Part shown: positions 26,573 to 26,766 of the stretch, one piece after another
How the letters are laid out: the number at the start of each line of letters is the position of its first letter
Numbering within the stretch: the stretch's first letter is position 1
Assembly (NCBI GenBank): GCA_964016885.1
Contig: OZ024742.1
Location: 351,292,001-351,356,000, forward strand
Length of the DNA stretch: 64,000 bases
DNA from: Eledone cirrhosa
Lineage: Eukaryota
Direction: 5' to 3'
Position numbers and translations under genes: made by a program
The notes under the pieces: model-generated
What the model was told of the DNA's origin: nothing
The model's database searches: none
The model's input: the letters and a program-made list of their open reading frames with translations, nothing else

Positions 26573-26766
26573 TAGGAACCAGTAAGACCCCGACAGCTGA
26601 GCTCAAGCCGTATCGACGGCTAATTGAGTCCAGAAATAGCCGTCGAAACGGCTTGAGCTCAGCTGTCGGGGTCTTACTGGTTCCTATTACCCACTCTACT
26701 ACGTCAAGTATTGAGTACTTTGGTGCGTTATGGTCCACCTGGTTCCTTACCACATTTCCTTCGTTA
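26573..26766 (+). mobile_element. Family E fold-back mini-element: 50-bp arms (1 mismatch), 14-nt loop, 80-bp tail, in (TA)n
   Basis: 26573-26622 pairs with 26637-26686; relatives at ~12555-12697, 20634-20745, 27432-27534, 34260-34457, 46202-46410, 49100-49228. Confidence 0.9.

Follow-up and report, generated by a model that had tools for sequence, protein, structure and literature searches.

Short head-to-head hairpins of Eledone cirrhosa as probable insertion products of a Hydra-clade Penelope-like element with its 5′ boundary inside a predicted hammerhead

Penelope-like elements (PLEs) are already known to form inverted truncated copies, to carry tails and pLTR hammerheads, and to target (TA)n. 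The Hydra clade is defined by the motifs RWK and DKT, a CxCX5C linker, and CxxC and CxH around E and N (Craig et al. 2021, PMC8557442). The Eledone cirrhosa family analyzed here resembles the elements of that account in its single ORF with RW(R/K), DKT, CxCX5C, CxxC and CxH, its (TA)n target, partial tandems, inverted 5′-truncated copy and tail at one end. It departs from them in having a tail of 80 nt rather than 30–40 nt, a unit of 3.55 kb rather than <3 kb, a U3-A8 rather than canonical hammerhead core, about 40 mini-copies per long insertion (in a sample) and a sharp 5′ boundary within the predicted ribozyme. The protein of Poseidon_Ac, a member of another clade, cuts in vitro and extends both strands from two internal reverse transcriptase (RT) start sites bounding the tail, and an AT-rich target, an AC-rich start region and an upstream hammerhead are further points of likeness (Frangieh et al. 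2024, PMC11167929). Its two strands are equal in start site and it is described without target homology, whereas here each insertion has one short and one long end and TAT follows both sites. Cercyon PLEs of Schistosoma have a pLTR type I U3-A8 hammerhead with a long helix II and a 5-bp helix I, as here (Cervera and De la Peña 2014, PMC4209133); the present fold differs in that its helix III has the full 5 bp, that G10.1-C11.1 is flanked by an internal loop, and that loop II, 31 nt long, is where the 5′ boundary of the short insertions falls. Non-LTR retrozymes are likewise short, non-coding, PLE-derived and hammerhead-related (bioRxiv 10.64898/2026.07.22.740005), but they are tandem units with a whole ribozyme each, and the mini-copies here are dispersed head-to-head pairs with half a ribozyme, showing neither the tandem arrangement nor the complete hammerhead per unit. 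How inverted PLE ends form and what the hammerheads do are treated as open questions (PMC8557442, PMC11167929).

The window, a stretch of 64,000 nt from contig OZ024742.1, holds a hairpin element at 26575-26764 with (TA)n runs on both flanks (Table 1). A first-pass annotation had recognized its mirrored arms, and an exact pattern for such hairpins has 12,267 matches genome-wide and 0 in a reversed control. The left arm (51 nt) is the reverse complement of +8 to +58 of the right arm (26627-26684, 58 nt) and has 1 difference from the parent element introduced below; over the whole copy 2 of 138 bases differ. Its short end is common to long parent insertions and the arm may be the product of an inner RT start site, while the single G at the junction was possibly copied from a cap. 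The order that had been read in the right arm, stem II strand, GAAA, stem III, GUC and GGGGU, is as claimed, and the arm does correspond to the 3′ half of a type I hammerhead fold. For the stem II strand the layout stands, but the ‘agaaatag’ read there reflects a private T-to-A change at +10, the parent subfamily having agaattag. Similarly, the element does comprise the inverted arms, but it also includes an 80-nt tail on one of them, which spans the interval between the two ends at +58 and +138. The 5′ core strand is at parent −43 to −37, outside the mini-element, which has one of the two core strands. The design recurs in the two other two-armed copies that had been listed, with the within-copy variants quoted for each; the third copy is on the minus strand, a point that the first-pass annotation had left out. 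Rfam gave no ribozyme match at the hairpin or at the canonical-core motifs of the window, only miRNA-like matches below threshold, and by eye neither tRNA-like Pol III boxes nor an HDV-like fold could be fitted to the element.

Table 1. Parts of the hairpin element and other members of its family in the window; numbers with a sign are parent positions
Feature	Position	Strand	Basis or remark
(TA)n target microsatellite, left	26444..26574 (outer limit approximate)	.	sequence read
Short arm	26575..26625	-	inverted parent +8..+58; ends at short end TTCC/TAT
Junction G	26626..26626	+	templated by neither parent (T) nor other arm (C)
5′ boundary AGTCCAG (+1..+7)	26627..26633	+	initiator-like; within the 31-nt stem II loop of the predicted parent ribozyme
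Hammerhead stem II 3′ strand, ends in C11.1	26634..26644	+	pairs with parent −36..−25
GAAA, hammerhead core 3′ half	26645..26648	+	sequence read
Stem III and GUC triplet	26648..26667	+	predicted cut after 26667 (+41)
Stem I 3′ strand GGGGT	26668..26672	+	partner ACCCC at parent −48..−44
80-nt tail (+59..+138), unpaired	26685..26764	+	AC-rich start; long end CGT/TAT; right arm only
(TA)n target microsatellite, right	26765..26893 (outer limit approximate)	.	sequence read
Second two-armed copy, older subfamily	34262..34455	+	sequence comparison
Third two-armed copy	46203..46408	-	sequence comparison
Tail arm alone, without inverted arm	49103..49229	-	sequence comparison
5′-truncated tail arm between (TA)n	27433..27535	+	sequence comparison
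Partial rearranged copy	20636..20744	+	sequence comparison
Nested fragments, same family	12560..12751	-	sequence comparison

In the hairpin, the terminal repeat (138 nt) of an autonomous Hydra-clade PLE that occurs elsewhere in the genome is present twice, head to head, in (TA)n. In one sampled stretch (L087) an RT reading frame separates these same ends, which are spaced by 2.7 kb, and the upstream sequence of that stretch occurs identically at 40 places and runs into the core in all 30 loci examined. Tandem units of 3.55 kb (L192, L194) give the order core, tail, ORF, 3′ region, core, and at G000:C1:91473193-91493782 there are five parent units in tandem at ~3,543-nt spacing with one more inverted. 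The single ORF encodes a protein of 717 aa for which Pfam and PDB sequence searches returned no match; its structural model (pLDDT 93) has telomerase RT (TERT) as the best fold match (E 4e-8, TM 0.34), and YRDD is invariant. The features by which a PLE is recognized are found together, namely a telomerase-like RT in a single ORF, a pLTR, partial tandems, an inverted 5′-truncated copy and a one-sided tail. Residues at candidate positions of a C-terminal GIY-YIG endonuclease (Y606, G608, R617, H621, E676 and N689) are kept in 98–100% of 114 aligned proteins, and PF01541 (GIY-YIG) is assigned to Atlas neighbours and to the best homologue, though the parent itself has no direct Pfam match. Hydra motifs are present as RWR (K in 72% of homologues), DKT, C572-C574-C580, C670-C673 and C698-H700, and the target is the (TA)n of that clade; judged by these motifs and the target the parent is a Hydra-clade PLE, an assignment that on motif evidence replaced one to the Neptune clade. 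Among 20 long loci examined, 13 had a divergent arm pair, with one short and one long end in 12 of these and the 13th unclassified. In the insertions L160, L180 and L188 the tail runs on into ORF sequence from its 5′ side and is joined to a truncated 3′ end.

Another Hydra-type PLE with RWK, DKT and CxCX5C lies in the window at 21600-26283 on the minus strand. Its inverted arms are long, one of its ends in (TA)n is short and the other long, and the stem II of its hammerhead-like motif at 26030 has a long insert; a further Hydra-like PLE at 18055-19852 (minus strand) has broken reading frames. A 357-nt inverted repeat, 99% complementary, surrounds a (TG)n/(CA)n hairpin at 46508-47668, and 38103-38821 and 45793-46065 hold what we take to be fragments like the coding ends of non-LTR retrotransposons.

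It had been predicted that a parent would carry the strand missing from the hairpin, as CTGANGA. What precedes +1 in the parent is ACCCC followed by TTGANAA, a G, two further bases and a stem II strand of 9 nt. The strands for stem I, core and stem II are thus at the predicted place, but the core is TTGANAA or CTGANAA. CTGANGA itself is absent from all 100 listed parent motifs, and canonical parent patterns with that core have 0 matches genome-wide. A looser pattern has 49, and the 40 of them examined include no canonical parent: they are chance flanks, chimeric joints to other elements, or ends of arms that enclose a loop of 4 nt. Parent-type motifs with the complementary strand number ~6,000 in the genome; counted by eye, the 100 listed have 77 U3-A8, 22 C3-A8 (a mismatch), 1 U3-G8 and 0 C3-G8 cores, with all four bases occurring at position 7. 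U3-A8 is a natural variant reported to be active in vitro (PMC3088659), and it is the type present in Schistosoma PLEs (PMC4209133). The parent has the features of a type I hammerhead of this variant, with a free N7, GAAA, UH and G10.1-C11.1, the last in 28 of 30 aligned parents. Across those 30, 91% of helix cells are paired. The minimum-energy fold is the hammerhead in one of five parents, from a young subfamily, and not in the other four; stability of the hammerhead fold is no better than that of shuffles (z −0.81), and there are three double changes in stem II, all from the same two sequences, with a slid control scoring nearly as high (0.058 vs 0.061). Taken together, the parent fold is likely a real hammerhead by descent, with thin support for a ribozyme in respect of the C3-A8 mismatches, covariation and fold energy, and the parent RNA is predicted to self-cleave after GUC (+41). 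Hammerhead-like motifs with canonical cores are present in the window at 14234, 14887, 16500 (minus strand), 16862 and 42625 (minus strand); Rfam missed all of them, and those at 16500 and 16862 sit in a 424-nt inverted repeat.

The family is very abundant. In 80 evenly spaced 10-kb stretches from 16 large contigs of the ~3.0-Gb genome there are 42 elements, which, if the sample is typical, corresponds to ~157,000 copies (113,000–213,000), rounded to ~150,000. Two-armed elements account for 25 of the 42, tail arms alone for 12 and other forms for 5; TA is on both flanks of 38, a target that hides target-site duplications. An exact pattern for arms complete to +1 has 30,859 matches genome-wide and 0 in the reversed control. 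Opposite-strand joints at the 5′ boundary are also present in contigs from four runs of one study, which may be the assembled sample and are not independent. None of the sequencing runs listed as containing the element is an RNA run.

Arms start between −3 and +14 in 34 of 56 cases (sample and window), only 2 parent arms reach further, and none of 50 listed complete junctions lies beyond about −6. The boundary positions are spread over −5 to +1 and fall mid-loop in the 31 nt that close stem II, where almost every aligned parent retains TYAGTY, and neither at the helix base nor at the GUC cut. This TYAGTY is presumably an initiator consensus. At 12 of 46 ends a G that no parent subfamily has precedes +1, and since about half of these Gs can be read from the other arm, the cap signal is weak. 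A TATA-like box at −29 was dropped, as it belongs to the stem II strand and is not conserved in other subfamilies. As the mini-copies end at an initiator-like site in the stem II loop, the half-ribozyme likely marks an RNA 5′ end. Bearing on a possible SINE-like self-propagation, with transcription and lineages of their own, main variants of the mini-copies have matching parent subfamilies, and some mini junctions carry upstream TTTT that is rare among listed parents. Sister families with canonical hammerheads also have two 3′ ends, and in one of them, H3, the 5′ boundaries pile up upstream of the ribozyme, and so its short insertions retain it whole; the half-ribozyme here thus appears to follow from the start point of the family’s RNA. 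Minimal canonical hammerheads, together with a fixed pair of 3′ ends ~70–100 nt apart, are also found in at least three further families associated with (TA)n, at L212, L135, L111 and many other loci.

The two arms of a copy have the same base at 276 of 301 subfamily sites (92%; 61% after shuffling). They group by subfamily per copy and not left arm with left arm, as the first-pass annotation had anticipated; distances and the shuffle test stood in for a tree. Left arms are about equally distant from other left and from other right arms, which together with the within-copy agreement points to the left arm being made anew at insertion. A copy’s own arm is strictly the nearest in only 2 of 35 cases, with 12 ties (one locus counted twice), and so what the arms share is subfamily variants rather than private ones. 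The short arm extends >8 nt further 5′ than the tail arm in 13 of 30 copies, or 10 when two alignment overreaches and one interrupted copy are discounted. Among long insertions, the short arm of L171 carries ~1.4 kb absent from the tail arm, and those of L161, L162 and L176 also have sequence missing from it. Six arms begin at +54/55, the short start site. L1 twin priming gives an inversion from two primings, one per side of a single break, and in likeness to it the joint of some copies here coincides with the inner start site, with the differences that this site is fixed and that the 5′ part is usually copied twice. Microhomology is seen at 19 of 29 junctions, a rough count as local alignments can overreach. 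In seven loci (L032, L039, L047, L049, L034, L040, L060) arms of other hammerhead-bearing families are attached to the core with no (TA)n between, the joint in L040 being at a shared CAGAAT; such chimeras may be template switches between PLE families.

In one long PLE insertion (L151/L152; G000:C3 near 281.48 Mb) the core of both arms has four identical A-to-G changes, and three more are in a neighbouring mini-copy that was carried along. All seven lie in the predicted double-stranded part, and such changes are absent from 38 of 40 other arm alignments. The changes fit ADAR editing of a sense RNA that was copied twice, or a source copy that already had them. The locus also shows that sites further downstream in a read-through RNA can serve as starting points for copying.

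The hairpin is probably the shortest insertion product of the Hydra-clade PLE, made by two-sided copying of an RNA that starts within the stem II loop. The PLE protein would cut (TA)n, and one cDNA would be primed from each side of the break at the two internal RNA sites, +58 and +138, perhaps through base pairing of a nicked (TA)n primer with the TAT that follows both ends of the parent unit. Synthesis of each cDNA would run off an RNA 5′ end, putatively a Pol II start, in the stem II loop of the predicted U3-A8 hammerhead, and the two cDNAs would then be joined head to head through microhomology or short templated inserts. The RNA may represent the 5′ end of full-length transcripts, or it may be a short transcript of 3′ repeats or of mini-copies. 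The half-ribozyme would be a by-product of where the RNA starts, without function for the mini-element. Observed elements of this scheme are the parent, the shared ends, the target, the boundary inside the fold and the independent reach of the arms; unequal arms in mini-copies could also come from later deletion in the hairpin.

A single cDNA that folds back and copies itself, with the inversion point set by stem II as the first-pass annotation suggested, is improbable. Palindromes at inverted PLE junctions have been read as self-priming on an antisense template (PMC3846280), and here too junctions are often on short self-complementary words, the arms match within a copy, and the short arm stays within 8 nt of the reach of the tail arm, or falls short of it, in 17 of 30 copies. 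However, both arms stop in the small stem-loop, putting the junction on the stem II hairpin, in just 2 of 29 copies, and in 23 of 29 one or both arms extend as far as +8 or further. The short arms with sequence that the tail arm is without (10 of 30 mini-copies and the four long insertions named above) are the other reason why snap-back is not supported; the A-to-G changes of L151 are on the sense strand, and the fixed short end would require a separate explanation. Two-sided copying with a boundary due to RNA processing or an RT stop, rather than to a transcription start, is rather unlikely. A conserved TATA box is indeed absent and the boundary is spread over several positions, but it is mid-loop, away from the helix base and the GUC cut, at the widely kept TYAGTY, and initiators have been described in pLTRs (PMC3846280).

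The other suggestion of the first-pass annotation, a two-piece hammerhead in which the mini-element provides the substrate half and is cut in trans, is very improbable. The 3′ half is well conserved, and with the complementary strand in the many parent-type copies pairing in trans is possible in principle. Against this, a separate canonical enzyme strand has 3 matches compared with 13 for the control, ends are not clustered at the predicted cut (3 of 56 arms start within 3 nt), and in the parent the partner strand is in cis. An ordinary DNA-transposon MITE that moves as a fixed hairpin is extremely improbable. It would share the inverted arms and TA flanks, and one junction is common to many of the best 30 matches, but those loci were chosen by their likeness to the query and in unselected sets the junction varies between copies. 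The ends are asymmetric, the tail is one-sided and the sequence comes from the terminus of an element that encodes an RT; neither the symmetric terminal inverted repeats nor the fixed body of a MITE was found.

An extension of two-sided copying is unlikely but merits mention. The PLE start site might split its own ribozyme, such that the 5′ copy is a half and stays uncut while the whole 3′ copy cuts at +41. The RNA would then have a 41-nt terminal repeat, with RT starting near the 5′ end and strong-stop strand transfer as in retroviruses required for copying the remainder, and the mini-copies would be paired strong-stop cDNAs without transfer. Downstream-site copying at the locus with A-to-G changes makes strand transfer less needed. 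If the extension were true, the mini-copies would be a fossil record, ~150,000 copies strong, of the PLE replication cycle.

A literature search of mainly open-access main texts found no description of such two-armed mini-copies or of a PLE hammerhead with a 5′ boundary in its interior. The 893 unclassified SINE families in the repeat library of PMC13282606, or files S1-S2 of PMC8557442, may already include this family. For annotation, a search for CUGANGA misses the ~6,000 variant ribozyme copies, and ~150,000 short hairpins that annotation tools would call SINEs or MITEs are probably PLE products. The family provides a large natural test set for PLE insertion: its two ends are fixed and each insertion has one of either kind, the 5′ boundary inside the predicted ribozyme is sharp, the parent is young with an open ORF, and the arms of one insertion share editing-like changes. 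The traces left in it argue against self-priming.
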